Assembly (NCBI GenBank): GCA_964544585.1
Contig: CAZJBV010000002.1
Coordinates: forward strand, 131,468 to 195,467
Length of the DNA: 64,000 bases
Direction of reading: 5' to 3'
Source: an uncultured Gammaproteobacteria bacterium
GTDB taxonomy: Bacteria; Patescibacteriota; Microgenomatia; 2-02-FULL-39-11
Numbering within the stretch: the first letter of the stretch is position 1; every line of letters begins with the position of its first letter. Position numbers and translations under genes: made by a program. Below are positions 7,778 through 64,000 of the stretch, piece after piece. Below the pieces are notes generated by a model, which worked only from the letters and a program-made list of their open reading frames with translations, was not told the DNA's origin and did no database searches.

Positions 7778-9544
7778 ATGTGCGGAATCTTTGGTTATGT
7801 AGGCAAAAATAAAAATGCCGGAGATCTCGTCCTTGAGGGCCTTCGCATCCTCGAATATCGAGGCTATGATTCCTGGGGTATAGCCACCTTAAATAATTCT
7901 TCTATAAAAATTACCAAAAAAGCCGGTAAAATTCCCCAATCAAAAATAAAATTTAACTCCTCGCCAATTGCGCTTGGTCATACCCGCTGGGCCACACACG
8001 GAGGAGTCACAGACATAAATGCTCATCCCCATCTTGACTGTACCGGAAATCTGGCCATCATCCACAACGGCATCATCGAAAACTATGACCAATTAAAAAA
8101 AACCCTTTCCCATTCCAATCATCGATTTTCTTCCGAAACCGATACCGAAATTGCCATTCACCTCATCGAATCATATAAAAGATCTGGCCTTTCCTTTCGC
8201 GAGGCAGTTCGCAAGGCTTTCAACCAATTTGAAGGCCTAAATGCCATCATCGTCATCGACGCCGAAACCAAAACCTTTATTGCCGCCAAAACCGGTTCTC
8301 CCCTTGTTGTTGGTCGTGGAAAGGGCGAAGGAAATTATATCGCTTCCGACGCTCCAGCCCTCATCAAACACACAAATATTCTTCATTTTGTGGAAGACGG
8401 CGAAATGATTGAAATGAACTCTATCGATATTAAATGCTTCGATCAAAAAACCGGCCGTCCAAAATCTCTTAAATGGCAAACGATTCACTGGAAATTCGAA
8501 TCAATAGACAAAGGTAAATATCCACATTTCATGCTCAAAGAAATTTATGAGCAGCCAAAAGTCATAAAATCAATTTTAAACCAGGGTGAGTCGACCATAA
8601 AAGACCTAGGCAAACTAATTAAACACTCATACGGCACTTACCTCGTAGCCTGTGGTACCGCAGCCTACGCTGCTCTTGCTGGCACATACCTTTTTTCTAA
8701 AATTGCCAAGCGTCACGTCAACTACACCGTCGGCAGCGAATTTGGATACCAGCTCGATTTTTTGAAAAAAGGAAGTTTGGTTATCGCCCTTTCCCAGTCT
8801 GGTGAAACCATCGACGTTATCGACGCGGTCAAAAAAGCAAAGGAACAGGAAGCCACAATTTATGCATTAGTAAATACCCTAGGTTCTACCCTTTATCGCA
8901 TGGCAGACTACAAAAGCCTTCTTCTTGCTGGCCCTGAAAAAGCTGTTGCTTCAACCAAGGCCTTCACCGCCAAACTCACTTATCTTATCCTTTTAGCATA
9001 CGCCCTTGCCGAAAGTCACAATAAAGGAAAAAAACTGGTTGAAAAGGCTATAATAGCGACCAATTTTATTTTCCAACACGAAATTGAAAATATCAAAAAT
9101 ATTGTCAAGGATATATTTAGGAGTCAGCACATTTATGCCATCGGTAGAGGACTAGCCTATCCAATAGCCCTCGAAGCTGCTCTCAAAATAAAAGAGATTT
9201 CCTACATTCACGCCGAAGGGATGGCCAGTGGTGAATTAAAGCATGGCCCAATTGCCCTAGTAGAGGAGGGAACACCTTGTATCGCCTTTCTACCCGACGA
9301 CGAGACTTATGGAGCCAATCTAGCTGGAGCCATGGAAATGGAGGCAAGAGGCGCCAAAATTATTGGCATTTCATTCAAAAACCACGAAGTCTTTGACTAT
9401 TTTATAGAGGTGAAAGATGCTGGTCCGGCTAGTATTATTCCCGAAACCATCGCAGTCCAACTTTTAGCATATTATCTATCCATCGCCCGCGGCCTCGACC
9501 CAGACAAACCAAGAAACCTCGCCAAATCCGTCACCGTCAAATAA
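7778..9544 (+). CDS. glmS: Glutamine--fructose-6-phosphate aminotransferase
   Basis: N-terminal MCGIFGY Ntn-amidotransferase start and two SIS domains. Only 40 nt of upstream spacer, so no room for a glmS ribozyme. Confidence 0.9.
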   Translation: MCGIFGYVGKNKNAGDLVLEGLRILEYRGYDSWGIATLNNSSIKITKKAGKIPQSKIKFNSSPIALGHTRWATHGGVTDINAHPHLDCTGNLAIIHNGIIENYDQLKKTLSHSNHRFSSETDTEIAIHLIESYKRSGLSFREAVRKAFNQFEGLNAIIVIDAETKTFIAAKTGSPLVVGRGKGEGNYIASDAPALIKHTNILHFVEDGEMIEMNSIDIKCFDQKTGRPKSLKWQTIHWKFESIDKGKYPHFMLKEIYEQPKVIKSILNQGESTIKDLGKLIKHSYGTYLVACGTAAYAALAGTYLFSKIAKRHVNYTVGSEFGYQLDFLKKGSLVIALSQSGETIDVIDAVKKAKEQEATIYALVNTLGSTLYRMADYKSLLLAGPEKAVASTKAFTAKLTYLILLAYALAESHNKGKKLVEKAIIATNFIFQHEIENIKNIVKDIFRSQHIYAIGRGLAYPIALEAALKIKEISYIHAEGMASGELKHGPIALVEEGTPCIAFLPDDETYGANLAGAMEMEARGAKIIGISFKNHEVFDYFIEVKDAGPASIIPETIAVQLLAYYLSIARGLDPDKPRNLAKSVTVK

Positions 9545-9548
9545 CATC

Positions 9549-10350
9549 CACCTTAGAGGTGTCCCAGATAGGACACCTTTGGTAAATATTACGATTCCAA
9601 AGTCAAATGTTTAATTGCAGCCAATCTTTTCTGGTAGTCTTTCTGATCTAAAGTAAATTCTTTGAAATCCTCAATGCTTTTAAAATACGATAAAATATCC
9701 TGCTTATGAACCAGGGGCTTACTTTCATTATTATCATTTAAAAACAGAGGCAGTGAAGAATACGGATAATTTAAGAGATCTTCTGTAGATTTAACAATAT
9801 ATGATGTATATGGATTTAGGTGAATGTATCGTGTAACGTGCATATATTGCTCATCGGATTCTATTAATACAGCCTTAAATTTTCCTTGAAATATTGGTCC
9901 ATACGTTTCATTTTTGACATTTAAGAAACGAGTATACCCATTTGAAATATTCCCGACAAATTTTGCTATACCATTATTCTTAATTTGTTGAAGAAGTAGA
10001 TGGAAATGACTAGGCATAAGACAGAAAGCATGGATTCTCACAATATAATCTTTTTTATTTAATAAATTTAAATATATACTTTCTCTTTGATCTCTACTTA
10101 ATTTTAGAAATCTAGAATAACGTAATGGGATGCTGGAAAACTGATAATAAAATAGTAGCTCAAGAAAACGACCATAACTTCTATTATTTATAAACACTTG
10201 CTGCCCATACGTACCCCGATTAAATACGTGATATATCTGATCCGTAATGAGAGGAATATTTCTTCCAGGCATAATATAAATATAGAGTTTATTTACCAAA
10301 GGTGTCAATAGAAATACACCTTAGAGGTGTATTAGCTAGGACACCTGGCT
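9549..10350 (-). mobile_element. IS200/IS605-like or REP-associated (RAYT-like) element: a Y1 HUH transposase gene between two subterminal hairpins
   Basis: Direct repeat caccttagaggtgt lies on both sides (9549-9562 and 10317-10330). Each repeat is followed by a hairpin: aggtgtcc-cagata-ggacacct at 9556-9577 and aggtgt-attagcta-ggacacct at 10325-10346. Transposase CDS 9589-10308 lies between. Confidence 0.6.
9589..10308 (-). CDS. Y1 (HUH) transposase, IS200-like / REP-associated tyrosine transposase-like
   Basis: YHVFNRGTYGQQ N-terminal motif and the HuH motif PSHFHLLL. Flanked by hairpins. Confidence 0.6.
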   Translation of the reverse strand: MTPLVNKLYIYIMPGRNIPLITDQIYHVFNRGTYGQQVFINNRSYGRFLELLFYYQFSSIPLRYSRFLKLSRDQRESIYLNLLNKKDYIVRIHAFCLMPSHFHLLLQQIKNNGIAKFVGNISNGYTRFLNVKNETYGPIFQGKFKAVLIESDEQYMHVTRYIHLNPYTSYIVKSTEDLLNYPYSSLPLFLNDNNESKPLVHKQDILSYFKSIEDFKEFTLDQKDYQKRLAAIKHLTLES

Positions 10351-36763: not shown

Positions 36764-37695
36764 ATAAAATATTTATTATCATACCCACTTATAACGGCTT
36801 GAAAGACACATTTGAATGTCTCAAAACAATTTCTAAACTAAATTATAATAACCAAGAAATAAAAACAGTTATTGTCGATAACGCCTCAACTGACAAAACT
36901 CCTGAATTCCTGGAGAAAGAAAAATCAAAATATAATCTCCGCAAAATCTTCAAAAACAATAAAAATCTCGGCTTTGCCAAAGCCTGCAATATAGGCATAA
37001 AGTATGCCTTAGAAAATAATGCAGACTACATCCTCCTCTTAAATAGCGACGTGGTAATAGATCAAAACTTCCTTCCATCTCTGATAGATTCTGATTTAGA
37101 CATCATCAGCCCCGTAGTACAATTTCCCCTCGATCCTGATGGAAAAGATTATCGCTACGATTATGGTGGATACGTCAATTGGTGGACAGGCCGCACATAT
37201 CACGACGACAGAAAAGTTTTTTCCAAAAGACATCGAGGCACCTCGGACGTAAAGACACCTCCGAGGTGGCCCGCCCGCCTGCCGGCAGGCAGGGAAGGGA
37301 CTCCTCGGACGGTGGAGGGAGCAGGAAAACCGGAATATATTCCCGTTGACTATATGTCCGGCTGCAGTTTACTCATCAAAGCAGAAGTTTTTAGAAAAAT
37401 CGGCCTTTTTGATGAAAAATTTTTTATGTATTTCGAAGACGTCGACTTCTGCGTCAGGGCCAAAAAGGCCGGTTTTAGAGTCGCGGTGGATCCGCAATCC
37501 CTCATATTCCACAAGCTCGGCGGATCGATCAAACGCTGGTCAACAAAGGCAATTTACTATAATATCTCCAGTAATGCCATTTTTATCCTCAAATACTGCG
37601 GCATAAAAACCCCAATTGCTCTGGGATATCTTTCACTTCTCACCGCCAAAATTATAATGGATAAGATTTTATATAAACTAGACGCTAGACGCTGA
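36760..37695 (+). CDS. Family 2 glycosyltransferase carrying a large palindromic-element insertion
   Basis: IIIPTYNGLKDTFECL...VIVDNASTD and the DxD motif. Element at 37238-37318 encodes [27 protein letters not shown] in frame. Confidence 0.75.
   Translation: MNKIFIIIPTYNGLKDTFECLKTISKLNYNNQEIKTVIVDNASTDKTPEFLEKEKSKYNLRKIFKNNKNLGFAKACNIGIKYALENNADYILLLNSDVVIDQNFLPSLIDSDLDIISPVVQFPLDPDGKDYRYDYGGYVNWWTGRTYHDDRKVFSKRHRGTSDVKTPPRWPARLPAGREGTPRTVEGAGKPEYIPVDYMSGCSLLIKAEVFRKIGLFDEKFFMYFEDVDFCVRAKKAGFRVAVDPQSLIFHKLGGSIKRWSTKAIYYNISSNAIFILKYCGIKTPIALGYLSLLTAKIIMDKILYKLDARR
37238..37318. repeat. GC-rich palindromic element, long form
   Basis: cacctcggacg-taaa-gacacctccgaggtgg-cccgcccg-cctgccggcagg-cagggaaggga-ctcctcggacggtgg. 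Confidence 0.85.
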
Positions 37696-42510: not shown

Positions 42511-42620
42511 TCTCTTTTCAAACACCCCCTTTGTCAAAAGGAATTTGAATTATATTTTTCCACAATATCATTACAGCCTCTATAAAAGCATATATTATCG
42601 GTATCTGCTACTATGTAAAT

Positions 42621-43133
42621 GTGAATAAGAAAAACAAAATGAGAAAAAGGAAAAATAAACCAATAGTATATGCCTTTATAGATAGCCAAAACCTAAATCT
42701 TGGAGTTAGATCGCAAGGGTGGGAATTGGACTTTCGACGTTTTCGAATTTATTTGCACGAAAAATACAATGTAAAAAATGCATATCTATGTATAGGATAT
42801 ATTCCTAACAATAAAAAGTTATATGATTTTCTAAAGGAAGCAAAATACATTTTGATTTATAAACCAGTCTTGGAGCCAAAACATGCCAAAGTGAAAGTAA
42901 AAGGGAATGTTGACGCCGAGTTAGTATTGCATGCAATGATTGAATTCCCAAAGTACAACAAAGCAATTATTGTTAGTGGAGACGGAGACTTTCATTGTCT
43001 TATTGAATATCTCCATGGAAAAAACAAATTAGCAAAGATAATTGTGCCAAATAAGAAATACTCCTCTCTTTTAAGGAAATTTAGCAATTATATAGTCAAT
43101 ATCGATTTGATGAAGAGCAAATTAAAACAATAA
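42621..43133 (+). CDS. NYN-domain (LabA/PIN-like) putative ribonuclease
   Basis: IVYAFIDSQNLNLG…and the IVSGDGDF motif. Confidence 0.6.
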   Translation: MNKKNKMRKRKNKPIVYAFIDSQNLNLGVRSQGWELDFRRFRIYLHEKYNVKNAYLCIGYIPNNKKLYDFLKEAKYILIYKPVLEPKHAKVKVKGNVDAELVLHAMIEFPKYNKAIIVSGDGDFHCLIEYLHGKNKLAKIIVPNKKYSSLLRKFSNYIVNIDLMKSKLKQ

Positions 43134-49644: not shown

Positions 49645-51009
49645 ATGAATCAAATCCTCATTCTTCTCGGCAAAATCATTTCTGCCCTCAGTAAAATTAC
49701 CAACCTTGGTAGTGGTAGCACCTGGCCGGGTGAAATAGCGTTAATAACAAATCCAAATATTTTGGCTCATTTTTTTAACAAAGTAAAAAAAGGAATCATT
49801 ATAATCGCCGGCACAAATGGTAAAACCACTACCGCAAAAATGGTTCAAGAAATGATAAGCTCACAGTATCCCATAGACACTATAGTTCACAACGATTCAG
49901 GTGCCAACCTCTTAAACGGCATAACTTCAGCCTTTATAAAAAAGGCCAAAATTATTACGAACAGTTATTTTGACTGGGCAGTCTTGGAAGTCGACGAAAA
50001 TACTCTTCCCATTTTACTTAAATATCACCTCAGCCATAAAGACACCTCGGATGGTGTGCGCATAAAGACACCTCCGAGGTGGCCCGCCCGCCTGCCGGCA
50101 GGCAGGGAAGGGACTCCTCGGATGGTGGAGAAACCAGCAAAGCCCAAAATTGTCATTGCCCTTTTAAATCTTTTTCGCGACCAGCTCGATAGATATGGAG
50201 AGGTAGATACCATTGTCTCAAAATGGTTGTCTGCCCTCAAAAATTATTTGGGAAAAGTCAATCTCATTACCAATGCCGATGATCCCACCATTGCCTACAT
50301 GGGTCTTTCTTGTCAAAAGAATGTCACTTTTTTTGGTATAGACAAGGCAAAAGGCATAAAAGAAATAGAGCATGCTACAGACTCCATCTTTTGCCCGCTA
50401 TGTGGACATAAATTAAGTTATGAGGCCGTCTATTATTCTCATATAGGTAGATGGGCTTGTCCATCATGCAACCTTAATCGTCCTAAAATCCAAACCGCAA
50501 GTATAAAAACCAAATTACCAGGTCTATACAATTTTTATAATACACAATGCGCCGTATTAATTGCTCAAACAATCGGAATAAAAGAATCTAATATAAAGTC
50601 AGCTCTCCAAAATTTTACCCCCGCCTTTGGCCGCCAAGAGGAATTCAGCATCAATGGTAAAAAAATTAAAATCTTCCTCTCCAAAAACCCAGTCGGCTTC
50701 AATGAATCTCTAAAAACTGTCATCGATCTCGGCGCCAGGCAAGTGCTTCTCGTTTTAAACGATAGGATACCCGACGGCCGCGACGTCTCCTGGATTTGGG
50801 ACGTAGACTTTGAAATAATTCCTGAAAACACCCAAATCATAGCTTCAGGAGAAAGATGCTATGACCTTGCCCTCCGCCTCAAATACGCAGGCAAAAAATT
50901 TGAAATAGAAAAAGACTTGAGAAAATCCATCCAGTCAGATTATATTTTGCCTACCTATTCGGCCATGCTCGAAGTTCGAAAAATTTTGACGGGCAAAAAA
51001 ATTCTTTAA
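49645..51009 (+). CDS. murT: Mur-ligase-like lipid II isoglutaminyl synthase subunit MurT, carrying a palindromic-element insertion
   Basis: Mur ligase P-loop IIAGTNGKTTTA, Cys4 ribbon CPLCGH…CPSCN, and a DUF1727-like C-terminus. Element at 50041-50129 encodes [31 protein letters not shown] in frame. Confidence 0.65.
   Translation: MNQILILLGKIISALSKITNLGSGSTWPGEIALITNPNILAHFFNKVKKGIIIIAGTNGKTTTAKMVQEMISSQYPIDTIVHNDSGANLLNGITSAFIKKAKIITNSYFDWAVLEVDENTLPILLKYHLSHKDTSDGVRIKTPPRWPARLPAGREGTPRMVEKPAKPKIVIALLNLFRDQLDRYGEVDTIVSKWLSALKNYLGKVNLITNADDPTIAYMGLSCQKNVTFFGIDKAKGIKEIEHATDSIFCPLCGHKLSYEAVYYSHIGRWACPSCNLNRPKIQTASIKTKLPGLYNFYNTQCAVLIAQTIGIKESNIKSALQNFTPAFGRQEEFSINGKKIKIFLSKNPVGFNESLKTVIDLGARQVLLVLNDRIPDGRDVSWIWDVDFEIIPENTQIIASGERCYDLALRLKYAGKKFEIEKDLRKSIQSDYILPTYSAMLEVRKILTGKKIL
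50041..50129. repeat. GC-rich palindromic element, long form
   Basis: gacacctcggatggtg-tgcgcataaa-gacacctccgaggtgg-cccgcccg-cctgccggcagg-cagggaaggga-ctcctcggatggtgg. Confidence 0.85.
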
Positions 51010-51026
51010 CTACCAAACTACAAACT

Positions 51027-51854
51027 ATGAACTACAAACTAACTATCGGCTGGCTCTATCCTGATTACATGTCGACCTATGGAGATCGTGGTAATATTAT
51101 TTGTCTGACCAAACGATGCCAATGGAGAAAAATTAATGTCGAAATTAAGAAAATAGAATTTGAAACACTCCCACAAGAAATCGATTCTTGCGATTTGATT
51201 ATCGGCGGCGGAGCCCAAGATAGGCAACAGGAATTGGTGGCAAAAGATCTTTTAAAGAAAAAAAATATTTTTAGAATATTATTTAATAGGGGAGTGCCAG
51301 GTCTTTTTGTCTGCGGCTCTCCCCAACTTCTTGGTCACTATTACATGACAGGGGATGGGAAAAAATTGGCAGGCCTAGGAATTTTCGACTATGTTACCAA
51401 GCATTTCGGACATGACAAACCCCGCTGCATCGGCAACACAGTCGCAAAAGTCATCGGCATAAACACCTCGGATGGAAAGACACCTCCGAGGTGGCCCGCC
51501 CGCCTGCCGGCGAGGCAGGAAGGGACTCCTCGGATGGTGGAAGGATCACAAACCATCGTCGGTTTTGAAAATCATGGTGGTAGAACATATTTAGGCTCCA
51601 GCGCAAATCCCTTTGCCAAAGTTTTAGCTGGCTATGGCAATAATGGGGAAGATGGATACGAAGGCGCAATCTACAAAAATGTCATCGCCTGCTACTACCA
51701 CGGCCCCTTTCTTCCCAAAAATCCCCATATTGCAGATTGGCTTCTTACCCGCGCACTTGAAGTCAAATACAAAAAAGTTATACAATTGGGACCTCTCGAT
51801 GATGGACTTGAATGGCAAGCGCATGATTTTATATTAAATAGGGTCAGACCTTAA
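51027..51854 (+). CDS. gatD: CobB/CobQ-type glutamine amidotransferase GatD (lipid II isoglutaminyl synthase glutaminase subunit), carrying a palindromic-element insertion
   Basis: LYPDYMSTYGDRGNI N-terminus characteristic of GatD. Catalytic Cys in FVCGSPQLLGHY. Sits directly downstream of murT. Element at 51463-51542 encodes [27 protein letters not shown]. Confidence 0.65.
   Translation: MNYKLTIGWLYPDYMSTYGDRGNIICLTKRCQWRKINVEIKKIEFETLPQEIDSCDLIIGGGAQDRQQELVAKDLLKKKNIFRILFNRGVPGLFVCGSPQLLGHYYMTGDGKKLAGLGIFDYVTKHFGHDKPRCIGNTVAKVIGINTSDGKTPPRWPARLPARQEGTPRMVEGSQTIVGFENHGGRTYLGSSANPFAKVLAGYGNNGEDGYEGAIYKNVIACYYHGPFLPKNPHIADWLLTRALEVKYKKVIQLGPLDDGLEWQAHDFILNRVRP
51463..51542. repeat. GC-rich palindromic element, long form (core variant cctgccggcgaggcagg)
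   Basis: aacacctcggatgg-aaa-gacacctccgaggtgg-cccgcccg-cctgccggcgaggcagg-aagggactcctcggatggtgg. Confidence 0.85.
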
Positions 51855-57357: not shown

Positions 57358-58883
57358 ACAATTACGAACCAATAATTGGTCTTGAAATTCACGTCGAACT
57401 AAAGACCAAATCAAAAATGTTCTGTGGTTGCAGGGCCGATTGGTTTGGTTTGCCCCCAAATTCCAATACTTGCCCTGTTTGTCTAGGTCTACCTGGTGCA
57501 CTTCCGGTTCCCAACAAAAAAGCAGTCGAATGGTGTATCATGCTCGGCCTTGCCCTAAATTGCCAAATCCCCGAAACATCTAAATTTAATCGAAAAAATT
57601 ATTTTTACCCCGATCTTCCCAAAGGTTATCAGATATCACAATACGATCAACCCCTTGCGATAAATGGATGGTTGGAAATAAATAAGCCACAAGACACCTC
57701 GGATGGTGGCGAAGCAACGACTTCGACTCCTCCGAAGGTGCGAAGGGACCGGAAAAGAATAGGCATCACCCGCGTCCACATGGAGGAAGATACAGGCAAA
57801 CTTCTCCATGCCAAAGTCGAGGGTTCAAACGTTTCCTTAGTCGATTTTAATAGAAGCGGCGTCCCTCTCGTCGAAATAGTTACAGAACCTGACATAAGAA
57901 GTAGTGAGGAAGCTCGAACTTTTCTTAAAAAACTCCACCAAATAATTCGCTACTTGGGTATTTCCGACGCCGATATGGAAAAAGGCTCCATGCGCCTCGA
58001 GCCAAATATCTCTCTCCGAAAAAGAACAGGCGACAAAGACACCTCGGACGGTGTCCGCCAGCCGGCGGACTCCTCCGAGGTAAAGACACCTCCGAGGTGG
58101 CCCGCCCGCCTGCCGGCAGGCAGGGAAGGGACTCCTCGGATGGTGGAGGAAGCATTACCAAACTATAAAGTCGAAGTCAAAAATATCAACTCATTTAATT
58201 TTGTTAAAAAAGCAATCGATTTTGAATTAGAGCGCCATACGGATATTTTAGAAAGGGGTGAGTTGCCTATACAAGAAACTCGCGGCTGGGACGAAAAAAA
58301 AGGCATAACATATTCTCAAAGATCAAAAGAAGAAGCCCACGACTACCGCTATTTTCCCGAACCAGATATTCCTCCAATGAGATGGGGAAAAGAGCAAATA
58401 TCAAAAATCAAAGATCAAAAACCCGAACTTCCCGATGCTAAAATAAAAAGATTTATCAAAGATTATAAGTTGTCAGAATACGACGCAACAATTTTGACAG
58501 ACGAAAAATCAACCGCTGACTATTTCGAAAAAGCCTTAAAGACACCTCGGGGGTGGCCGAATGGACTCCCCCGAGGTGGAGAGACCGGAATAAACCCCAA
58601 AACCATCGCCAATTGGATTATAAACAAACGGATTGATACATCAAGGATTTCGCCAGAAGAACTCATCAAATTGATAACAAGTAAAACACAAACTATTCAA
58701 ATAGATGAAAAAGAATTGGAATCAATCATCAAAAGAGTCCTCTCTCAAAACCCCAAAGCCGTCTCCGACTACAAAGCCGGAAAACAACAAGCTATAATGT
58801 TTCTAGTCGGCCAAGTAATGCGAGAAACCAAAGGAAAAACTGATGCGAAAAAGATAAAAACAAAGCTAAAAAATATGATATAA
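57354..58883 (+). CDS. gatB: Asp/Glu-tRNA(Asn/Gln) amidotransferase subunit B, interrupted in frame by three palindromic elements
   Basis: N-terminus [23 protein letters not shown] and the C-terminal YqeY/GatB tail. Insertions at 57693-57740, 58038-58148 and 58541-58579 are all in frame. Confidence 0.85.
57693..57740. repeat. GC-rich palindromic element (short arm-only form with a nested cgaag..cttcg hairpin)
   Basis: gacacctcggatggtgg-cgaagcaacgacttcg-actcctccgaaggtg. Confidence 0.7.
58038..58148. repeat. Composite GC-rich palindromic element: an arm-only unit followed by a full long-form unit
   Basis: gacacctcggacggtg-tccgccagccggcgga-ctcctccgaggt-aaa-gacacctccgaggtgg-cccgcccg-cctgccggcagg-cagggaaggga-ctcctcggatggtgg. 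Confidence 0.85.
58541..58579. repeat. Short-form GC-rich palindromic element; same loop as the 19067 copy but with a co-varied stem
   Basis: gacacctcggggg-tggccgaatggact-cccccgaggtgg. The stem cgaagg/ccttcg in the 19067 copy is cggggg/cccccg here. Confidence 0.75.
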
Positions 58884-58893
58884 TCAGCTTAGT

Positions 58894-59118
58894 ATGAAAA
58901 AACTTCAGAAATTACCAGCAAATTATGATTTTTTCATTAAAACAGACACATCATCTTATAAAGGTGAATGGATTGCAATTACCGGTAAGAAAATTATATA
59001 TCACGGTAAAGATGCTCAAGAAGTCTACAGAAAAGCAAAGCAAAAATATCCAACTGCCAATGTTTCACTCGCCAAAGTTCCCGACGAGCAAATTCTGATA
59101 TTAAGATTCTCCCAATGA
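58894..59118 (+). CDS. Small hypothetical protein (74 aa), probably co-transcribed with the downstream aspartic protease
   Basis: 4-nt overlap with the next ORF. No assignable motif. Confidence 0.4.
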   Translation: MKKLQKLPANYDFFIKTDTSSYKGEWIAITGKKIIYHGKDAQEVYRKAKQKYPTANVSLAKVPDEQILILRFSQ

Positions 59119-59522
59119 TTATTTTCCGCTATAAAGAAGAACCATCTGGCAAGAAAAACGAACTAATCAAAAGACCAATTGCTGATATATATATTAGAAG
59201 CAAATCCGGGCCCTGGATAGAATTTCATCCCTATATAGATTCAGGTGCGGATGTCACTCTTATCCCTCTGACTCTCGGAAACCTTATTGGACTAAAAGTT
59301 GATGAAAAGAAAATTGAACAAATAGGAGGCATTAGAGGTAGTGTTCCTGCCATTTATTCTCAAGAAAAAATACGAATTGGAGACAATATACTCTCAGCTC
59401 GCATCGCTTGGGCCTTAATTGAAGAAGTTCCACCTCTCCTCGGACGCACTGATATCTTTGATAGTTTCCATGTCACTTTCAAACAAAACCAAGGAATAAT
59501 TATTTTCGATGAACGAAAATAA
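59115..59522 (+). CDS. Retropepsin-like (clan AA) single-domain aspartic protease
   Basis: Catalytic motif YIDSGADVTLIP (D-S-G-A) and the flap-like LLGRTDIFDSFHVTF. Confidence 0.6.
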   Translation: MIIFRYKEEPSGKKNELIKRPIADIYIRSKSGPWIEFHPYIDSGADVTLIPLTLGNLIGLKVDEKKIEQIGGIRGSVPAIYSQEKIRIGDNILSARIAWALIEEVPPLLGRTDIFDSFHVTFKQNQGIIIFDERK

Positions 59523-59669
59523 TTACCCAAAGCCATCTCCGACTACAAAGCCGGCAAAGTTAAAGTTATAATGTTTCTAGTCGGTCAGGTAATGAAAGAA
59601 CTCAAAGGGAAAGGAAACGCAGGAGCGATTAAAGAGAAATTATTAAATTACTTATCAAAATATGGATAG
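59523..59669 (+). pseudogene. Orphan duplicate of the gatB 3' end (no start codon)
   Basis: Encodes [32 protein letters not shown]…* . About 85% nt identity with gatB 58752-58836 ([29 protein letters not shown]). Confidence 0.7.
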
Positions 59670-60360
59670 ATTTGGCGGCGAGCGCAGATATCGCCCAATT
59701 CCTCCAAATAAAGAAGCACTTATAAAAACTAGAATTCAGGCCTTAACTCCTAGAGTAGCCTCCTTAAGACAACGATTGCAGAATGGAGAATTGTTACCAG
59801 AAAGATTCGATGAAAATATAGTTAGGATGATTGTGGCGAGAGAGCTTTTAACAGAAAGAGCTAAATTAAGAGACTTAATTGACGATAAAACTCAACTTCC
59901 CAATTCAAAATGGTTTGGACGAGAACTTCAAGAAAGAATAGAGAGAGTAAAAAAAGAAGGAGGATCAATAGGAATAATTATGCTTGATATTGACAATTTT
60001 GGAGAAATAAATAAAAGGATTGGGCAGCAAGCTGGAGATGAAGTTTTACGTCAAGTAGCCTTGCAAATTGAACTTAATACTAGACTTGAAGATTTCCCCG
60101 CAAGGTGGGGCGGAGAAGAATTTATAGTCATTACAGAAGTAGAAGATCCACAAATACTTAAAGATATTAGTGAGAGAATAAGAAAAGGTGTTGCTGAAGG
60201 GAGTTATGGAAATGCTGGTTCACAATCAGTTAGTATGGGCGGTACCATTTACACAGATGGAGAGAGAGCAGAAGATTTTATTCAAAGAGCCAATAATGCA
60301 ATGATATTATCGAAAAATACAGGCAAAAACAAAGTTTCTATACCTGAACTGGGTAAATAA
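59662..60360 (+). CDS. GGDEF-domain diguanylate cyclase (no sensor domain)
   Basis: IMLDIDNFGEIN… and the active-site motif RWGGEEF. Confidence 0.7.
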   Translation: MDRFGGERRYRPIPPNKEALIKTRIQALTPRVASLRQRLQNGELLPERFDENIVRMIVARELLTERAKLRDLIDDKTQLPNSKWFGRELQERIERVKKEGGSIGIIMLDIDNFGEINKRIGQQAGDEVLRQVALQIELNTRLEDFPARWGGEEFIVITEVEDPQILKDISERIRKGVAEGSYGNAGSQSVSMGGTIYTDGERAEDFIQRANNAMILSKNTGKNKVSIPELGK

Positions 60361-60388
60361 ATATGAACAAAGCATCGTAATTCATTTT

Positions 60389-60442
60389 ATGTCTGATTTT
60401 GTTCACCTTCACTGCCATCCAGAATATTCAATGTACAGTTAA
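60389..60442 (+). pseudogene. Orphan duplicate of the dnaE 5' end (17 codons then stop)
   Basis: atgtctgattttgttcaccttcactgccatccagaatattca… matches the dnaE start at 61121 (atgtctgattttgttcatcttcactgtcattcggaatattca…) with 4 substitutions. Encodes MSDFVHLHCHPEYSMYS*. Confidence 0.7.
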
Positions 60443-60535
60443 ACAAACTATAGGATATTGACAAATCCTACCATTATGGTAATATGTGATGACTAAACTC
60501 TCCTGCAACACCGCAAGGTCTTTGCAGGATTTTTT

Positions 60536-61117
60536 TTGGCCAACTCATGTATAATAAGTCTGATGAAGCAGGAAAGATGTATAATTCTTGTTGATGGCAG
60601 TAACTTCTATTTTAAACTCAAGGACCTAAATCTCCATCGATTAATTAATTTTGATTTCTCCAGTTTCTCAAAAACATTGGCAGGAGATAGACAACTTACC
60701 TACGCCACATATTATATTGGCGCAGTACGGAGTGATAATACTAAAAAGACACAAAAATTATTCAATCAACAGCGTAAATTACTCAACCATCTAAGAAAAC
60801 ATAATTTTAAATACTCTTTAGGATATCTTTTGAAATCCAACGGTCGGTTTCGTGAGAAGGGTGTAGATGTGAATATAGCCGTCGATATACTAGTTTCTGT
60901 ATATGAAAATCTTTGTGATTATATAATCCTGGTTTCTTCAGATACCGATCTTCTTCCTGCAATCAAAAAAGCAAAAGAGAAAGGGAAAACCGTAGAATAT
61001 ATAGGGTTTTCCCATAGACCGAGTATTGCTATGGTAGCAAATTGTTCAAAGTCAAGGTTGTGGACAAAAGAAGATCTTTTACCTTTTATAAGAAAGGCAA
61101 ATAAACAGAAAAAATAA
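60536..61117 (+). CDS. NYN-domain (LabA/PIN-like) putative ribonuclease, paralogue of 42621-43133
   Basis: CIILVDGSNFYFKLKDL… and ILVSSDTDLLPAIKKAKEKGKTVEYIGF. Confidence 0.6.
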   Translation: MANSCIISLMKQERCIILVDGSNFYFKLKDLNLHRLINFDFSSFSKTLAGDRQLTYATYYIGAVRSDNTKKTQKLFNQQRKLLNHLRKHNFKYSLGYLLKSNGRFREKGVDVNIAVDILVSVYENLCDYIILVSSDTDLLPAIKKAKEKGKTVEYIGFSHRPSIAMVANCSKSRLWTKEDLLPFIRKANKQKK

Positions 61118-61120
61118 GCT

Positions 61121-64000
61121 ATGTCTGATTTTGTTCATCTTCACTGTCATTCGGAATATTCACTTTTGGACGGACTTTCCAAGATTCCAGACTTACTCGT
61201 CCGCACCAAAGAACTGGGTATGGATTCCCTCGCCCTTACAGATCATGGCGCCATGTATGGCGCCATCGAATTTTATACCAAAGCAGAGGATGCAGGCATA
61301 AAGCCAATTATTGGCATGGAGGCATACCAAGCGGCTCGATCCAGATTTGATAAAGAAGCTGGCCAAGACCGCGATCAGTACCACCTCGTCCTTCTCGCCA
61401 AAAACAAAACCGGCTATCACAATCTTATTAAACTGACAACCCTCTCCCACTTGGAAGGTTTTTATTATAAACCCCGCATCGACATGGATTTATTACGGGA
61501 GTATAAAGACGGACTCATTGCCCTTTCAGGCTGCATGAATGGGTTGATCCCGAGTCTTCTTCGCGATAATCAAATTGATTCCGCCGAAAAAAAAGCCTTA
61601 GAATTCTTGGAAATTTTTGGCAAAGACCATTATTATTTTGAAATCCAAAAGCACTCCAAAATACCAGAACTCGATAAAATCAATGATCAATTAATTACCC
61701 TTTCGCGAAAACTTGGTATTCCCCTCGTTGCTACAAATGATGCTCATTATCTCACCCCGGAAGATGTCGAGGCCCAGGAAATTTTACTTTGTATAGGCAC
61801 ACAAAGAACAATCCTCGAAAAAAATCGACCCCTGTCTATGATCTCATCTCCCGATTTTTATCTTCGTTCGGCAGAAGAGATGAAAGGCCTTTTTTTAAAG
61901 CATCCCGAGGCAATAGAGAATACTAAAAAAATTGCCGAGCTTTGTAATTTGGAAATAGATCTTGGCAACTGGATTCTGCCTCATTTTACCGTTCCGCCTG
62001 ATTTTACCGCCAATACATACCTCAAAAAACTTGCCTTTGATGGGGGTAAGATGCGCTTTGGAAAAATCACCGATGAAATAAAGCAAAGGTTGGATTATGA
62101 ATTGGAAATTATCGCCCATAAAGGCTACTCGACATATTTTTTGGTCGTTGCCGATTTCGTTAACTGGGCCAAGGAAAAAGGCATCGCCGTTGGTCCAGGC
62201 AGAGGTTCAGCAGCCGGAAGCCTGGTTGCTTACTGCATGCGCATTACCGATCTCGATCCTCTATTTCATGAACTTCCCTTTGAAAGATTTTTAAATCCCA
62301 ATCGCCCCTCCCCTCCGGATATTGATTTGGATTTTGCCGACAATCGTCGCGACGAAGTCATTGAGTACGTTACCCATAAATATGGCCAAGACAAAGTAGC
62401 CCAAATAATAACCTTTGGTACCATGGAGGCTCGCCAGGCCGTCCGCGATGTAGGTAGAGCCCTCGGCATGCCCTACGCCCAACCCGACAGAATAGCTAAA
62501 TTGATCCCCATAGGGGCCCAAGGATTCCCCATGACCATAGAAAAGGCTCTCGAGCTATCTCCCGAATTATCTTATGCCTATCAACACGAGGCAGACACAA
62601 AGCGCCTGATTGATCTGGCACGCAAACTCGAGGGGGTCGCTCGCCACGCCTCCGTCCACGCCGCCGGCGTGGTCATCGCCGATAAGCCTCTTACTCAATA
62701 TGTACCCCTGCAAAAAGAAACCAAAGGAGACAGAGTCATTACTCAATACGATATGTATTGTCTCGATCTCAATGCTGCGGGAGGAGGAAAAGCAGTCGGC
62801 CTTCTTAAAATGGATCTATTGGGGCTAAGAAACCTCTCCATTTTGGAAAAGGCTGTCAAATTTGTTAAAGATAGCCGTGGGGTAGAGGTCGATTTTCACA
62901 GCATCCCGCTCGATGAAAAAAAAGCCTACGAAATCATTGCCTCCGGAGAAACGACGGGTATTTTTCAACTAGAATCACCTGGCATGCGTCGACTAGCCAA
63001 AGACCTCAAGCCCACCAAATTTACAGATATCTCGGCCATGGTTGCCCTTTTTCGTCCCGGGCCCATGGATTGGATACCCATTTTTATCGAAGCCAAGCAA
63101 AATCTAAAAAAAATAAAATACCCTCACGAAGCCCTAAAACCGATTCTCTCAGAAACCTATGGTATAGCAGTCTATCAGGAGCAATGTATGCAGATAGCCC
63201 ACGTTATGGCAGGTTATTCCCTCGTTGAAGCAGATAAATTGAGAATGGCCATAGGCAAAAAAAAGCCGGAGGTAATGAAAAAGGAGAAGGAGAAGTTTAT
63301 CTCAGGATGTATCAAGCAAGGATACTCAAAAAGTGTAGCCGAAAACGTCTTTTCACTTATAGAAAAATTTGCCGGCTACGGCTTCAACAAAGCCCACAGT
63401 GCCTCTTACGGCATGATTGCTTATCAGACCGCATATATGAAGGCCAAATATCCCATAGAATTTATGTGCGCAGTTTTGGCAGCCGAATCTCATGGATCGG
63501 GTCCAGCCCGAGATGAGAAAGTCGCCCAAGCCGTCATGGAGTGCAAAAGAAATAATATCCCTCTCCTTCCGCCCGACATAAACAATTCGGATAGCGATTT
63601 TACTATCGAAAACCTGCCTGCCCGTCCGGCAGGCGGGCCTGCCGGCAGGCAAGGAGAAAAAATTCGCTTCGGCCTCTCAGCCGTCAAAAACGTAGGCACA
63701 GCCGCAATCGACTCTATTCTTTCCGCCCGCATAAAAGGAGGACTTTTTGTTTCTTTAACCGATTTTATCTCCCGCGTCGATCTCCAAAAGGTAAATAAAA
63801 AAACTCTTGAAAGCCTCATCAAAGCAGGGTGTCTTGATAGATTTGGCAAAAGGGCAAGTTTACTTGCCGCCATACCCCAGTTTGTTGAAATTGCCCACAA
63901 AAGACAAAAAGAATACGAATCAGGCCAGGCAAGCCTCTTTTCCGATGAAGAAACTTCGACCGTTATCGATGTATTGCCCGAACTGGACGAATTTTCCCAA
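61121..64000 (+). CDS. dnaE: DNA polymerase III alpha subunit, 5' part; runs off the window end. Carries a palindromic-element-derived insertion
   Basis: PHP domain start MSDFVHLHCHSEYSLLDG and polymerase core motifs (GPGRGSAAGSLVAYC, PDIDLDF). Hand translation found no stop through position 64000. Element at 63603-63650 encodes NLPARPAGGPAGRQGE. Confidence 0.85.
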   Translation, partial: MSDFVHLHCHSEYSLLDGLSKIPDLLVRTKELGMDSLALTDHGAMYGAIEFYTKAEDAGIKPIIGMEAYQAARSRFDKEAGQDRDQYHLVLLAKNKTGYHNLIKLTTLSHLEGFYYKPRIDMDLLREYKDGLIALSGCMNGLIPSLLRDNQIDSAEKKALEFLEIFGKDHYYFEIQKHSKIPELDKINDQLITLSRKLGIPLVATNDAHYLTPEDVEAQEILLCIGTQRTILEKNRPLSMISSPDFYLRSAEEMKGLFLKHPEAIENTKKIAELCNLEIDLGNWILPHFTVPPDFTANTYLKKLAFDGGKMRFGKITDEIKQRLDYELEIIAHKGYSTYFLVVADFVNWAKEKGIAVGPGRGSAAGSLVAYCMRITDLDPLFHELPFERFLNPNRPSPPDIDLDFADNRRDEVIEYVTHKYGQDKVAQIITFGTMEARQAVRDVGRALGMPYAQPDRIAKLIPIGAQGFPMTIEKALELSPELSYAYQHEADTKRLIDLARKLEGVARHASVHAAGVVIADKPLTQYVPLQKETKGDRVITQYDMYCLDLNAAGGGKAVGLLKMDLLGLRNLSILEKAVKFVKDSRGVEVDFHSIPLDEKKAYEIIASGETTGIFQLESPGMRRLAKDLKPTKFTDISAMVALFRPGPMDWIPIFIEAKQNLKKIKYPHEALKPILSETYGIAVYQEQCMQIAHVMAGYSLVEADKLRMAIGKKKPEVMKKEKEKFISGCIKQGYSKSVAENVFSLIEKFAGYGFNKAHSASYGMIAYQTAYMKAKYPIEFMCAVLAAESHGSGPARDEKVAQAVMECKRNNIPLLPPDINNSDSDFTIENLPARPAGGPAGRQGEKIRFGLSAVKNVGTAAIDSILSARIKGGLFVSLTDFISRVDLQKVNKKTLESLIKAGCLDRFGKRASLLAAIPQFVEIAHKRQKEYESGQASLFSDEETSTVIDVLPELDEFSQ
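63603..63650. repeat. Degenerate GC-rich palindromic element (two adjacent core palindromes) inside dnaE
   Basis: cctgcctgcccgtccggcaggcgggcctgccggcagg. Contains the exact cctgccggcagg core. Confidence 0.6.

Follow-up and report, generated by a model that had tools for sequence, protein, structure and literature searches.

The window analysed here, the whole stretch of 64,000 nt, carries a gene for an NYN/LabA-like protein lodged between two copies of the start of dnaE. Further upstream, two genes are similarly enclosed by two copies of the end of gatB, and a GGDEF diguanylate-cyclase gene stands between these two arrangements (Table 1).

Table 1. Features of the gatB–dnaE region, in window coordinates; locus L001 is identical to this region.
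Feature	Position	Strand	Remarks
Functional gatB tail, left copy of the twin repeat	58752..58883	+	GatB_Yqey 49.9 bits
Twin cassette	58894..59522	+	DUF5678 gene 58894-59118 and 135-aa retropepsin-like gene 59115-59522
Orphan gatB tail	59526..59669	+	GatB_Yqey 40.9 bits, reaching the last model position
GGDEF diguanylate-cyclase gene	59662..60360	+	PF00990, E 1.3e-33; ancestral neighbour between gatB and dnaE
Left repeat copy, orphan dnaE start	60388..60430	+	Still joined to native upstream DNA
Orphan ORF	60389-60442	+	17 codons, MSDFVHLHCHPEYSMYS and stop
Inserted cassette, leader-RNA unit and NYN gene	60431..61119	+	689 bp
Promoter P1 (predicted)	60458..60485	+	TTGACA, 16-nt spacer, TG-n-TAATAT; promoter scan 10/12 matches, extended -10
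Leader / small RNA (predicted), ~45 nt	60492..60537	+	Conserved 5′ tail ACUAAACUCUCC
Promoter P2 (predicted), extended -10 TGTATAAT	60548..60555	+	Read from sequence; ends 7 nt 5′ of the NYN ATG
NYN / LabA-like nuclease gene (predicted), 184 aa	60563..61117	+	PF01936, E 5.9e-20, 72.7 bits (cut-off 24.2)
Right repeat copy, functional dnaE start (ATG 61121)	61120..61162	+	3 nt past the NYN stop codon
dnaE	61121..64000	+	Continues beyond the window; 1071 aa in L001

The start of dnaE is present as a 43-nt direct repeat (60388-60430 / 61120-61162; 39/43 identical, start-to-start spacing 732), comprising a T and dnaE codons 1–14. The downstream copy opens the functional gene (ATG 61121, MSDFVHLHCHSEYS). 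The orphan copy has its own ATG at 60389, is translated as MSDFVHLHCHPEYSMYS with a Ser to Pro change in the PHP motif, and terminates at a stop codon (60440-60442). A blastn-short comparison of the two flanks, run on L001, gave E = 2.4e-11. The repeats bracket 689 bp, and dnaE is intact despite the insertion because its start is present twice. The first-pass annotation had reported both the upstream copy ending in a stop and the position of the NYN gene between orphan and real starts; both observations hold, with the ORF at 60563-61117 sitting between the copies.

A duplication of this kind could also arise from local rearrangement or misassembly, or the upstream copy could be a functional small ORF, as its ATG and open 17-codon frame would allow. 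We consider it very hard to sustain that no mobile insertion took place. GCA_016186845.1 contains the orphan copy joined to the insert, as do four independent Logan assemblies built from different runs (SRR12113424, SRR12113430, SRR12113383 and SRR12113419); this makes five independent assemblies in all, which contradicts the artefact possibility raised earlier. The suggestion of a functional small ORF fares no better, as the orphan replaces a conserved Ser with Pro and has been seen in this strain only. Both the orphan and the NYN gene are absent from relatives, and the same architecture recurs at other genes.

The gatB end shows a comparable arrangement. As the first-pass annotation had claimed, the tail is duplicated; the copies lie at 58752-58838 / 59526-59612 with 84% identity, and resemblance at the protein level continues to the end of gatB. 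The enclosed genes encode a DUF5678 protein (PF18929, E 2.8e-16) and a protein with weak aspartyl-protease matches (E about 0.01), and the stop codon of the orphan tail overlaps the GGDEF start (ATGGATAG). In the closest relatives fetched, neither cassette is present: locus L163 is laid out as gatB, 50 nt, GGDEF, 5 nt, dnaE; in L006 the GGDEF stop lies 1 nt before the dnaE ATG; and L003 has a similar gatB-GGDEF-dnaE order. These relatives are distant, with GGDEF proteins at most 56% identical, so the single dnaE start after GGDEF matches the window by arrangement, not by nucleotides. In other Microgenomates gatB directly adjoins dnaE, and neither orphan nor NYN gene is found in relatives. Since relatives keep the order gatB-GGDEF-dnaE without inserts, the earlier reading of two independent insertions, with GGDEF as the ancestral neighbour, survives the comparison across relatives that had been proposed for it. 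The sequence comparison thus supports orphan gatB tail, GGDEF and orphan dnaE start as the ancestral order, with two separate insertions in the facing gene ends. A single event producing both duplications was also considered and rejected, as it fails to give the observed gene order.

The insert at dnaE is a compact module with a predicted promoter, a leader RNA, a second promoter and a putatively leaderless NYN gene, which is its sole ORF; no inverted repeats and no recombinase, transposase or integrase gene were found within it. Both boxes of P1 are in register in 44 of the 53 distinct family members. The leader is predicted to fold into a hairpin (60501-60529) with a GCAA loop, followed by a U-run (60530-60537) in the shape of an intrinsic terminator (MFE -16.7 kcal/mol, z = -2.8). 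Across 57 sequences, 99.7% of cells are paired and 9 of the 11 pairs show compensatory changes, a covariation equalled by 0/500 shuffles. The leader lies immediately 5′ of NYN at 65 of 80 NYN loci that were retrieved from metagenomes, matches no Rfam family and occurs once in the window. A TATAAT-like hexamer is found between hairpin and NYN ATG in 41/53 members, and the proximity of P2 to the ATG implies a leaderless NYN mRNA. The NYN stop codon falls 3 nt short of the dnaE ATG, with no dnaE promoter in between; most likely, dnaE is now transcribed from the cassette and its translation is coupled to the NYN stop codon.

The cassette protein is a predicted nuclease of the NYN/LabA-like PF01936 family, with which profile, modelled fold and acidic residues all agree. 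The domain search proposed in the first-pass annotation confirmed PF01936, and the AF2 model (pLDDT 87) has a PIN-like alpha/beta fold for which Foldseek returned the LabA-like structure 2qip (E 5.6e-11), the MARF1 NYN domain (1e-4) and T5 flap endonuclease (1e-4). Among 27 sequences, D11, D127 and D129 are invariant and D102 and D108 are conserved in at least 90%. In family, 2qip/MARF1 NYN fold and conserved acidic active-site residues, the protein resembles the LabA-like NYN proteins (NYN.COG1432), and NYN proteins characterised to date are RNases (PMC5499597). It also matches the PADLOC HEC-09 HMM (E 2.4e-17), but is a stand-alone protein of 184 aa, lacks the extra N-terminal domain reported for HEC-09 and does not lie within an Hma system. 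HEC-09 gave no phage protection in a published test (bioRxiv 10.1101/2024.01.29.577857), so membership in this HMM is little guide to function; similarity to it is the sole feature hinting at a defence or toxin link for this NYN family. The window holds a second NYN gene (42621-43133), which the first-pass annotation had proposed to check for bounding duplications; it has no flanking repeats and its product is 21% identical to the cassette NYN.

Homologs of the NYN protein number 2192, with 60–77% identity overall (66–77% for the best 120 of 2192), and occur in Gottesman-, Curtiss- and Daviesbacteria, Microgenomates and Parcubacteria, all members of the CPR; dnaE identity between such lineages is only 51–68%. 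The genomic neighbourhood of the module is different in every case, and across the 80 metagenomic NYN loci NYN never adjoins dnaE, gatB or GGDEF. In other Gottesmanbacteria the cassette stands next to ileS; the corresponding site in the window is empty. Related cassettes in different contexts have in common only a stretch from about -107..-158 relative to the NYN start to -36..+172 relative to its stop. This shared part runs from just upstream of the -35 box to around the stop codon, with varying breakpoints. Fixed termini and a recombinase gene are both lacking. With somewhat more than even confidence, and jointly with the import reading set out below, we regard 60431-61119 as one member of a family of small cassettes that spread horizontally and are common throughout CPR bacteria (Patescibacteria).

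Flanking repeats recur in this family. At 18 of 67 sampled loci (27%) they exceed the maximum of 134 mismatched-flank controls (0/134 as strong), and a handful were seen in 0.94 Mb of control loci. They measure 16–73 nt, differ in sequence at each locus and are 100% identical in 9 of about 18 cases. One of the two repeat edges often falls exactly at a gene boundary: at an ATG in the window, L122/L142 and L156, at a stop codon in L159 (ftsZ) and L138 (fusA), and at a tRNA 3′ end in L092 and L129; the L092 repeat covers the tRNA from its anticodon loop to its 3′ end. Unrelated cargo (DUF5678/protease, Fic, membrane protein) with no NYN gene shows the same insertion style. Locus L018 has a 168-nt repeat at a dnaE start around other cargo, inserted in this same style, and in L108 a Fic gene lies within an NYN cassette with a repeat of ~225 nt.

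Such edges raise the question of whether the nuclease itself moves the unit. The leader RNA and NYN could form an autonomous minimal element, homing-like or transposon-like, in which a PIN/FEN-like protein cleaves structures that DNA forms at gene boundaries (tRNA ends, gene 3′ ends, the transcription bubbles of leaderless genes) and the cassette is copied or ligated into the staggered breaks. This would be a new kind of element, and it would account for long variable duplications with edges at ATGs and stop codons. The sole protein of the unit is a predicted metal-dependent nuclease with T5 flap endonuclease among its fold matches, repeat edges do coincide with tRNA ends, with stop codons and with the ATGs of genes that appear leaderless, and flanking repeats are strongly enriched over control loci. 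However, the element lacks conserved ends that a protein could recognise, the single leader match points to one copy in the window, known NYN proteins are RNases (PMC5499597), the NYN-less cargoes are inserted likewise, and the leader RNA shows no correspondence to its own targets. We consider an NYN-driven element quite unlikely.

The L092 repeat, a classical integrase signature, could instead suggest a miniature integrative element mobilised in trans by a recombinase of the tyrosine or serine type whose gene lies elsewhere (CIME-like), with the repeats as attL/attR and a replacement gene end carried along; gene ends are indeed restored as they are by islands that target gene 5′ or 3′ ends. 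Nevertheless, repeat sequence and length differ at every locus, which leaves no common att core, boundaries vary between related cassettes, and no integrase gene was found in the inserts or immediate flanks of the loci inspected. Trans-mobilisation of this sort appears slightly less probable still.

For the insertion at dnaE codon 14/15, made in the style of insertion with long target duplication, we favour the import of the cassette together with a donor gene end and hold it to be somewhat more probable than not. DNA from a related donor would have brought the cassette plus the donor's own dnaE start, with homologous exchange within dnaE integrating one side and an illegitimate join the other, either through homology-facilitated illegitimate recombination or through a Campbell-type crossover with a circular form. 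The apparent duplication would then consist of a resident and an imported allele rather than of a fresh copy that later decayed. The upstream copy is still joined to the native GGDEF-side DNA as a dead 17-codon stub, and the downstream copy, abutting the cassette, keeps dnaE whole. The NYN nuclease would not itself be the integration enzyme, and we speculate that leader RNA and nuclease are retained together through an addictive or protective effect, in a toxin-antitoxin-like or defence-like manner.

The main rival is a long target duplication made de novo. A linear cassette fragment would be captured at the dnaE start, where the DNA had suffered a staggered double-strand break or replication had switched template, and fill-in would double the 43 nt between the nicks, giving copies identical at birth that have drifted since; this class of mechanism is suspected for restriction-modification insertions. 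The complete identity of 9 of about 18 family repeats fits it and counts against import, being expected of fresh duplication and not of exchange with a diverged donor. The variable repeat length (16–73 nt) and the lack of defined cassette ends also fit de novo duplication, and the many target sites imply frequent insertion at new sites, where repeats are present. In L108 the orphan tRNA end has clearly decayed in place, which means that true duplication followed by decay also occurs, and DNA breakage has been suggested as a common factor in the precedent paper (PMC2853133).

The divergence of the copies points the other way. The dnaE copies differ at four nucleotides and one residue, a silent bias with P = 0.024 under random substitution that rests on those four substitutions; for the gatB tail the bias reaches P < 0.001. 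By its score the orphan gatB tail is still a genuine GatB end, with a full GatB_Yqey match (40.9 vs 49.9 bits) despite 39/132 differences, a score reached in 0/1000 neutral-decay simulations, of which 76% gained stop codons. Differences between the repeat copies of L138 and L122 are mostly synonymous, mismatches form clusters in the gatB and L138 repeats instead of being evenly spread, and de novo duplication does not explain why one of the nicks would coincide exactly with a start or stop codon. As the twin copies, the gatB tails especially, differ in the way functional alleles would, homology-assisted import is favoured over staggered-break duplication, which stays a live rival that we rate as possible but fairly improbable. 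The import model requires an earlier step that set the cassette flush with the ATG in the donor, and the corresponding donor arrangement, NYN directly 5′ of dnaE without an orphan, was found at none of 80 dnaE loci or 80 NYN loci.

Several known systems share parts of this architecture. Type III toxin-antitoxin loci such as ToxIN are compact mobile units comprising a promoter, a short structured RNA, an intrinsic terminator and an endoribonuclease-type gene. The cassette has the same order of promoter, RNA, terminator and nuclease, with the conserved covarying hairpin and U-run as putative terminator. However, its RNA is a single hairpin unit rather than a tandem array, most copies have a second promoter ahead of the nuclease gene, and the nuclease is an NYN protein, not ToxN, CptN or TenpN.

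Long, variable flanking duplications are also produced by the insertion sequences IS1634 and IS1549. IS1630 likewise makes target duplications of 19–26 bp (quoted in PMC2853133). All of them are bounded by terminal inverted repeats, encode a DDE-type transposase and occur in many copies per genome; the cassette shows none of these features. A classical insertion sequence or DNA transposon was rejected for want of terminal inverted repeats, a transposase and a fixed short target duplication. An RNA-guided element of the bridge-RNA/omega-RNA type was discarded as well: the 5′ tail of the leader is nearly invariant, and the leader's longest match to its own target averages 6.5 nt vs 6.4 nt to the targets of other elements.

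Integrase-borne islands replace the end of their target gene, as at tRNA 3′ ends or the dusA 5′ end. A tRNA-targeting case is quoted in PMC2853133. There, as here, a functional gene is rebuilt from an element-borne end and the displaced native end is left as an orphan on the far side; the cassette, in contrast, has no integrase and no common att core and is only 0.7 kb long. Neither a shared att core nor a nearby recombinase, by which integrative and cis-mobilisable elements are recognised, was found in the loci inspected. Homology-facilitated illegitimate recombination, which takes place during natural transformation, is known from work on Acinetobacter and pneumococcus. As defined in PMC3240628, it combines one homologous anchor, which here would lie in a conserved gene, with one illegitimate joint, so that a resident gene end can come to lie beside an imported one; for the cassette we put it forward as a proposal.

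The closest known phenomenon is the "insertion with long target duplication" of restriction-modification genes, reportedly first described by Nobusato et al. in 2000 in Helicobacter pylori. Such genes are accompanied by no other mobile element; the target duplications made on their insertion are long and variable, and most cases come from species with natural competence (Furuta, Abe & Kobayashi 2010, PMC2853133). In both cases a small nuclease-encoding unit without transposase or integrase, acting like a selfish gene, is flanked by long direct repeats of varying length and sequence that correspond to single-copy sequence in empty-site genomes and frequently overlap gene 3′ ends or tRNA genes. 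The repeats at dnaE (43 nt, 39/43) exceed the length of about 30 bp used for restriction-modification insertions, and the empty site is single-copy, at the level of arrangement, in L163, L006 and L003. The cassette differs in its hosts, which are CPR bacteria, in repeats that are shorter on average (16–73 nt), in the allele-like, silent-biased divergence of the window copies, and in its cargo, a putative RNase-type NYN protein and a structured leader RNA instead of a restriction enzyme and methylase. Because this cargo is not a restriction-modification system, the cassette represents a variant of the long-target-duplication class rather than a member as first defined.

The dnaE gene possesses a second copy of its own start, located upstream and separated from the intact one by a small NYN-domain nuclease gene; the two copies form a 43-nt direct repeat (39/43 positions identical, spacing 732 nt; table). 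Comparison of upstream and downstream flanks on the identical locus L001 recovered this repeat with E = 2.4e-11. The first-pass annotation had described a repeated dnaE start with the NYN gene between the copies, mirrored by a duplicated gatB tail; both duplications are borne out. Its caveat of an assembly artefact does not apply, as the upstream copy also occurs in the Gottesmanbacteria MAG GCA_016186845.1, which has the same arrangement, and the orphan start (the displaced copy) with its junction into the insert was found in four independent Logan assemblies from different runs (SRR12113383, SRR12113419, SRR12113424 and SRR12113430). Three of the four Logan contigs end inside the leader hairpin, as expected if hairpin k-mers are common to many metagenome elements; the fourth ends earlier in the insert. 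The gene caller annotated the orphan gatB tail of the MAG as a 44-aa GatB_Yqey ORF. Separately, the window and the MAG differ by a 51-nt in-frame indel in dnaE (61974-62023), beside similar short sequences (cattttaccg / gattttaccg), and by four more differences downstream of it; upstream they are 100% identical over 9.9 kb.

Features of the gatB–dnaE region and related elements (window coordinates)
Feature	Position	Description
Direct repeat at dnaE	60388-60430 / 61120-61162	
Orphan dnaE start (upstream copy)	ATG 60389	13/14 residues kept, then unrelated sequence, stop after 17 codons
dnaE start (downstream copy)	ATG 61121	MSDFVHLHCHSEYS; PHP-domain motif
Promoter P1	60458-60485	TTGACA, 16 nt, TG-n-TAATAT
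Leader RNA	hairpin 60501-60529	conserved tail ACUAAACUCUCC, ~7 nt past P1; GCAA loop; eight U
Promoter P2	60548-60555	extended -10 TGTATAAT
NYN gene	60563-61117	184 aa; PF01936, E 5.9e-20
Cassette ends		right end ...AAAATAAGC; left end ATGTACAGTTAAAC...
Expected empty-site form		GGDEF 3' flank, then ATGTCTGATTTTGTTCA...TATTCACTTTTGGACGG
gatB-tail repeat	58752-58838 / 59526-59612	84% identical; protein-level likeness to gene end
Twin cassette (between gatB tails) with the orphan tail	58894-59669	DUF5678 gene and 135-aa retropepsin-like gene
Second NYN gene	42621-43133	
Y1/IS200-like (RAYT-type) transposase gene	9589-10308 (-)	239 aa
Palindromic units	57690-57741, 58035-58146, 58541-58579, 63613-63655, 50038-50129, 51476-51541, 37241-37323	GC-rich, GACACCTCCGAGGTGG..GCCTGCCGGCAGGC

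The 689-bp insert between the repeats is a compact module of two promoters, a leader RNA and the nuclease gene. Among 80 NYN loci fetched from metagenomes, the leader unit directly precedes the NYN gene in 65. Across 57 distinct sequences, 99.7% of the cells of its 11-pair hairpin are paired and compensatory changes occur at nine pairs, a level that none of 500 column shuffles attains; slid controls fall to ~40% paired. Of 53 family members, 44 have P1 in register and 41 have a P2-like hexamer. No Rfam family matched the leader RNA, even at E <= 10. Because the P2 -10 element ends 7 nt before the NYN ATG, a leaderless NYN mRNA is implied. The NYN protein is predicted to adopt a canonical NYN fold (pLDDT 87), with LabA-like 2qip, the MARF1 NYN domain and T5 flap endonuclease as best matches, and its acidic residues are conserved; a sequence search against the PDB gave no informative match, and the fold search was used instead.

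The second NYN gene of the window, which the first-pass annotation had considered as possibly bounded by short duplications too, has no flanking repeats and does not belong to the same family (21% identical). A 24-nt inverted repeat (42579-42682; 88% complementary, arms 56 nt apart) surrounds its start codon and may be a regulatory hairpin.

The insertion has consequences for dnaE expression. All that remains under the control of the native dnaE promoter region is a 17-codon stub, and transcripts started there are expected to stop at the leader terminator. The NYN stop codon and the dnaE ATG lie just 3 nt apart, which leaves no room for a promoter of dnaE itself; the intact gene is presumably transcribed from a cassette promoter and translated by coupling to NYN termination. 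An essential replication gene would thus presumably be expressed from the promoter of a mobile element.

A search with the NYN protein produced 2192 homologs, the best 120 of which share 66-77% identity and belong to Gottesman-, Curtiss- and Daviesbacteria, other Microgenomates and Parcubacteria. The NYN protein is more conserved than DnaE, which is only 51-68% identical between the same kinds of lineages, and the neighborhoods of the NYN cassettes all differ. Two other Gottesmanbacteria have the cassette next to ileS and close to ftsZ, and the ftsZ-ileS junction of the window lacks NYN. Related cassettes (82-92% identical) in different contexts have in common only a part that begins 1-35 nt before the P1 -35 hexamer and reaches approximately to the stop codon, with breakpoints that differ from pair to pair by tens of nt. 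Judging by these comparisons, the NYN module is mobile and moves between lineages. It is present once in the 64-kb window, and neither terminal inverted repeats or conserved termini nor a recombinase gene was found in it. Among ten large ORFs of the window, a scan for competence or pilus genes turned up only cell-wall and division genes, ileS and a gene for a 747-aa multidomain hydrolase-like protein. Phage carriage was rejected, as no relatives were found in IMG/VR viral contigs. A literature search for NYN-linked mobile elements in Patescibacteria found nothing.

Several further loci deserve mention. The ileS-side stretch (L170, L171 and L172, other Gottesmanbacteria with the NYN cassette beside ileS) also contains HicAB toxin-antitoxin genes and small ORFs, and seems to act as a small hotspot of accessory cassettes; the variable stretch reaches ftsZ in L171 and L172, but not in the L170 fragment, which has a HicA gene. 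Two metagenome contigs (L134 at 1983, L135 at 1247) are 100% identical from 132 nt upstream of NYN to 2.4 kb downstream and fully different further upstream, with a REP-like palindrome near the breakpoint in L134; this reflects either a very recent rearrangement at the left edge of the cassette or a chimeric contig. A 24-nt motif, TCTAATTGATTCCATnnCCCGCAG (L145 4658-4681, L154 2396-2419, L169 3107-3130), is located just 3' of the NYN stop in two loci and ~100 nt 5' of the cassette in the locus of the closest homolog, and may have been left behind by a cassette that previously occupied the site.

Flanking repeats are a recurrent property of the family. For each NYN gene, up to 1.5 kb of upstream flank was searched against up to 1.2 kb of downstream flank; in 18 of 67 loci this gave a direct repeat exceeding all 134 mismatched-flank controls in strength. 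These repeats span 16-73 nt, with no sequence relationship between loci; in 0.94 Mb of control loci comparable repeats number only a handful, making them far commoner around NYN. One of their edges repeatedly coincides with the ATG of the downstream gene (dnaE in the window; L122/L142; L156), the stop codon of the upstream gene (ftsZ in L159, fusA in L138) or a tRNA 3' end (tRNA-Lys in L092, from anticodon loop to 3' end; tRNA-Gly in L129). In all such gene-boundary cases the cassette directly adjoins the intact gene, and it is the orphan fragment that retains the native outer flank. The module lands at essential genes, inside their ends (dnaE, fusA, ftsZ, tRNAs), and leaves them alive, since a second copy of the end is provided.

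The insertion process is not NYN-specific, since the same style occurs with DUF5678/protease, membrane-protein and Fic cargo. In L018 (4746-5809), an unrelated MAG, a 168-nt repeat (97% identical) spanning the dnaE promoter region and first 26 codons brackets a 208-aa membrane-protein gene; here another dnaE 5' end has independently received an insertion. In L108 (232-2537), an NYN cassette next to tRNA-His is interrupted in its 5' part by a Fic-domain gene (540-1496), which lies between the copies of a diverged duplication of ~225 nt (280-505 vs 1832-2058); the duplication extends from the tRNA 3' end over P1 and the leader into NYN (first ~16 codons), and its two copies have the same leader hairpin without any difference.

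At the gatB side, the first-pass annotation had proposed two insertions at the facing ends of gatB and dnaE with the GGDEF gene as ancestral neighbor, which the order in relatives supports. The orphan gatB tail ends in a stop codon that overlaps the GGDEF start (ATGGATAG), a native operon junction. In 80 dnaE loci of species-representative genomes neither an NYN gene nor the leader motif is present; the closest of these loci show either adjacent gatA-gatB-dnaE or gatB-GGDEF-dnaE. The spacing is gatB, 3 nt, GGDEF, 1 nt, dnaE in L006 (L003 is similar) and gatB, 50 nt, GGDEF, 5 nt, dnaE in L163, the closest GGDEF homolog outside the strain (56% identical). The block from orphan gatB tail through GGDEF to orphan dnaE start is therefore ancestral, supporting two separate cassettes inside the facing gene ends. 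A single event placing a foreign fragment of this composition between resident cassettes was rejected, as GGDEF is native in relatives and homologous arms replace rather than insert. The twin cassette ends in TAA, after which the orphan gatB tail continues in frame, unexpectedly well preserved as a GatB end.

How the repeats arose can be explained in two ways. A strong contender is true duplication at insertion, in which the target is copied through a staggered break or template switch, followed by decay of the orphan. Approximately half of the flanking repeats in the NYN family are 100% identical, the target sites are many and distinct, and the orphan tRNA end of L108 has visibly decayed in place, all of which fits duplication. 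So does the failure to find a donor with NYN directly upstream of dnaE in the 80 dnaE loci, the 80 NYN loci or around the closest NYN homologs, whose neighbors are a FemAB-like gene (P0002) or ileS (P0055, P0077). Alternatively, the cassette would enter together with the donor's copy of the gene end, by one exchange in the conserved gene and one illegitimate join, the two copies then being the resident and the imported allele. The orphan gatB tail points to such an import: it differs from the functional tail at 39/132 nt and still matches GatB_Yqey to the last model position (40.9 vs 49.9 bits). When neutral decay was simulated with the same substitution count and scored against an HMM of relatives' gatB tails, none of 1000 runs reached the orphan score (mean 15, maximum 58.6, vs 66.5), and 76% acquired stop codons. 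The dnaE copies differ by 4 nt and only one residue (P = 0.024), and L122 (two silent changes) and L138 (Arg AGA vs CGT, Val GTT vs GTC) point in the same direction. For the dnaE locus we favor import with a donor gene end on this sequence evidence; we infer the insertion mechanism, as we do the module's function.

Palindromic elements of another kind are also present in the window. The transposase gene is flanked by REP-like palindromes (ACACCTTAGAGGTGT); a third repeat pair of similar spacing (9536-9578 / 10304-10346), considered as a target duplication, consists of these palindromes. Related GC-rich units lie in frame in gatB and dnaE, adding Pro/Arg/Gly-rich stretches that relatives' gatB lacks; in-frame placement refers to these two genes only, and the units at 50038-50129, 51476-51541 and 37241-37323 are listed as occurrences. 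The in-frame units resemble Rickettsia palindromic elements, although the host here is a CPR genome.

CPR bacteria have tiny streamlined genomes with few recognizable transposons or integrases. The 0.7-kb module, with more than 2000 relatives, bears on how they obtain accessory genes, and it provides a searchable signature of gene flow, in which an orphaned gene end is followed by a cassette and this by the gene in intact form.

Among known systems, the NYN protein matches the PADLOC candidate HEC-09 (E 2.4e-17), which gave no phage protection in a published screen (bioRxiv 10.1101/2024.01.29.577857); bacterial LabA-like NYN proteins are listed by Matelska et al. as having unknown function, with functional studies lacking (PMC5499597). 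An RNA-guided element was considered and rejected: the leader is nearly invariant and matches its own targets no better than those of other elements. The order of promoter, small RNA, terminator and nuclease is like that of type III toxin-antitoxin loci, although the cassette has neither tandem RNA repeats nor a ToxN-type toxin, and we use this likeness as a working analogy only; the small RNA and NYN nuclease pair is a candidate new toxin-antitoxin or defense type. Unlike an insertion sequence, the cassette has no inverted repeats, transposase or fixed short duplication, and unlike integrase-borne or cis-mobilizable elements it shows no common att core, and no recombinase was seen in the loci inspected. 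The closest counterpart is insertion with long target duplication, described for restriction-modification genes, with repeats of >30 bp, sometimes over gene 3' ends or tRNA genes, and mostly in naturally competent species (PMC2853133). Both duplication at insertion and import with a donor gene end fall within this published mode. The cassette agrees with the class in every structural respect and differs in cargo; we therefore name it a new variant rather than a member, and with it a poorly understood insertion mode, previously linked with restriction-modification genes, is extended to another selfish nuclease and another bacterial branch.
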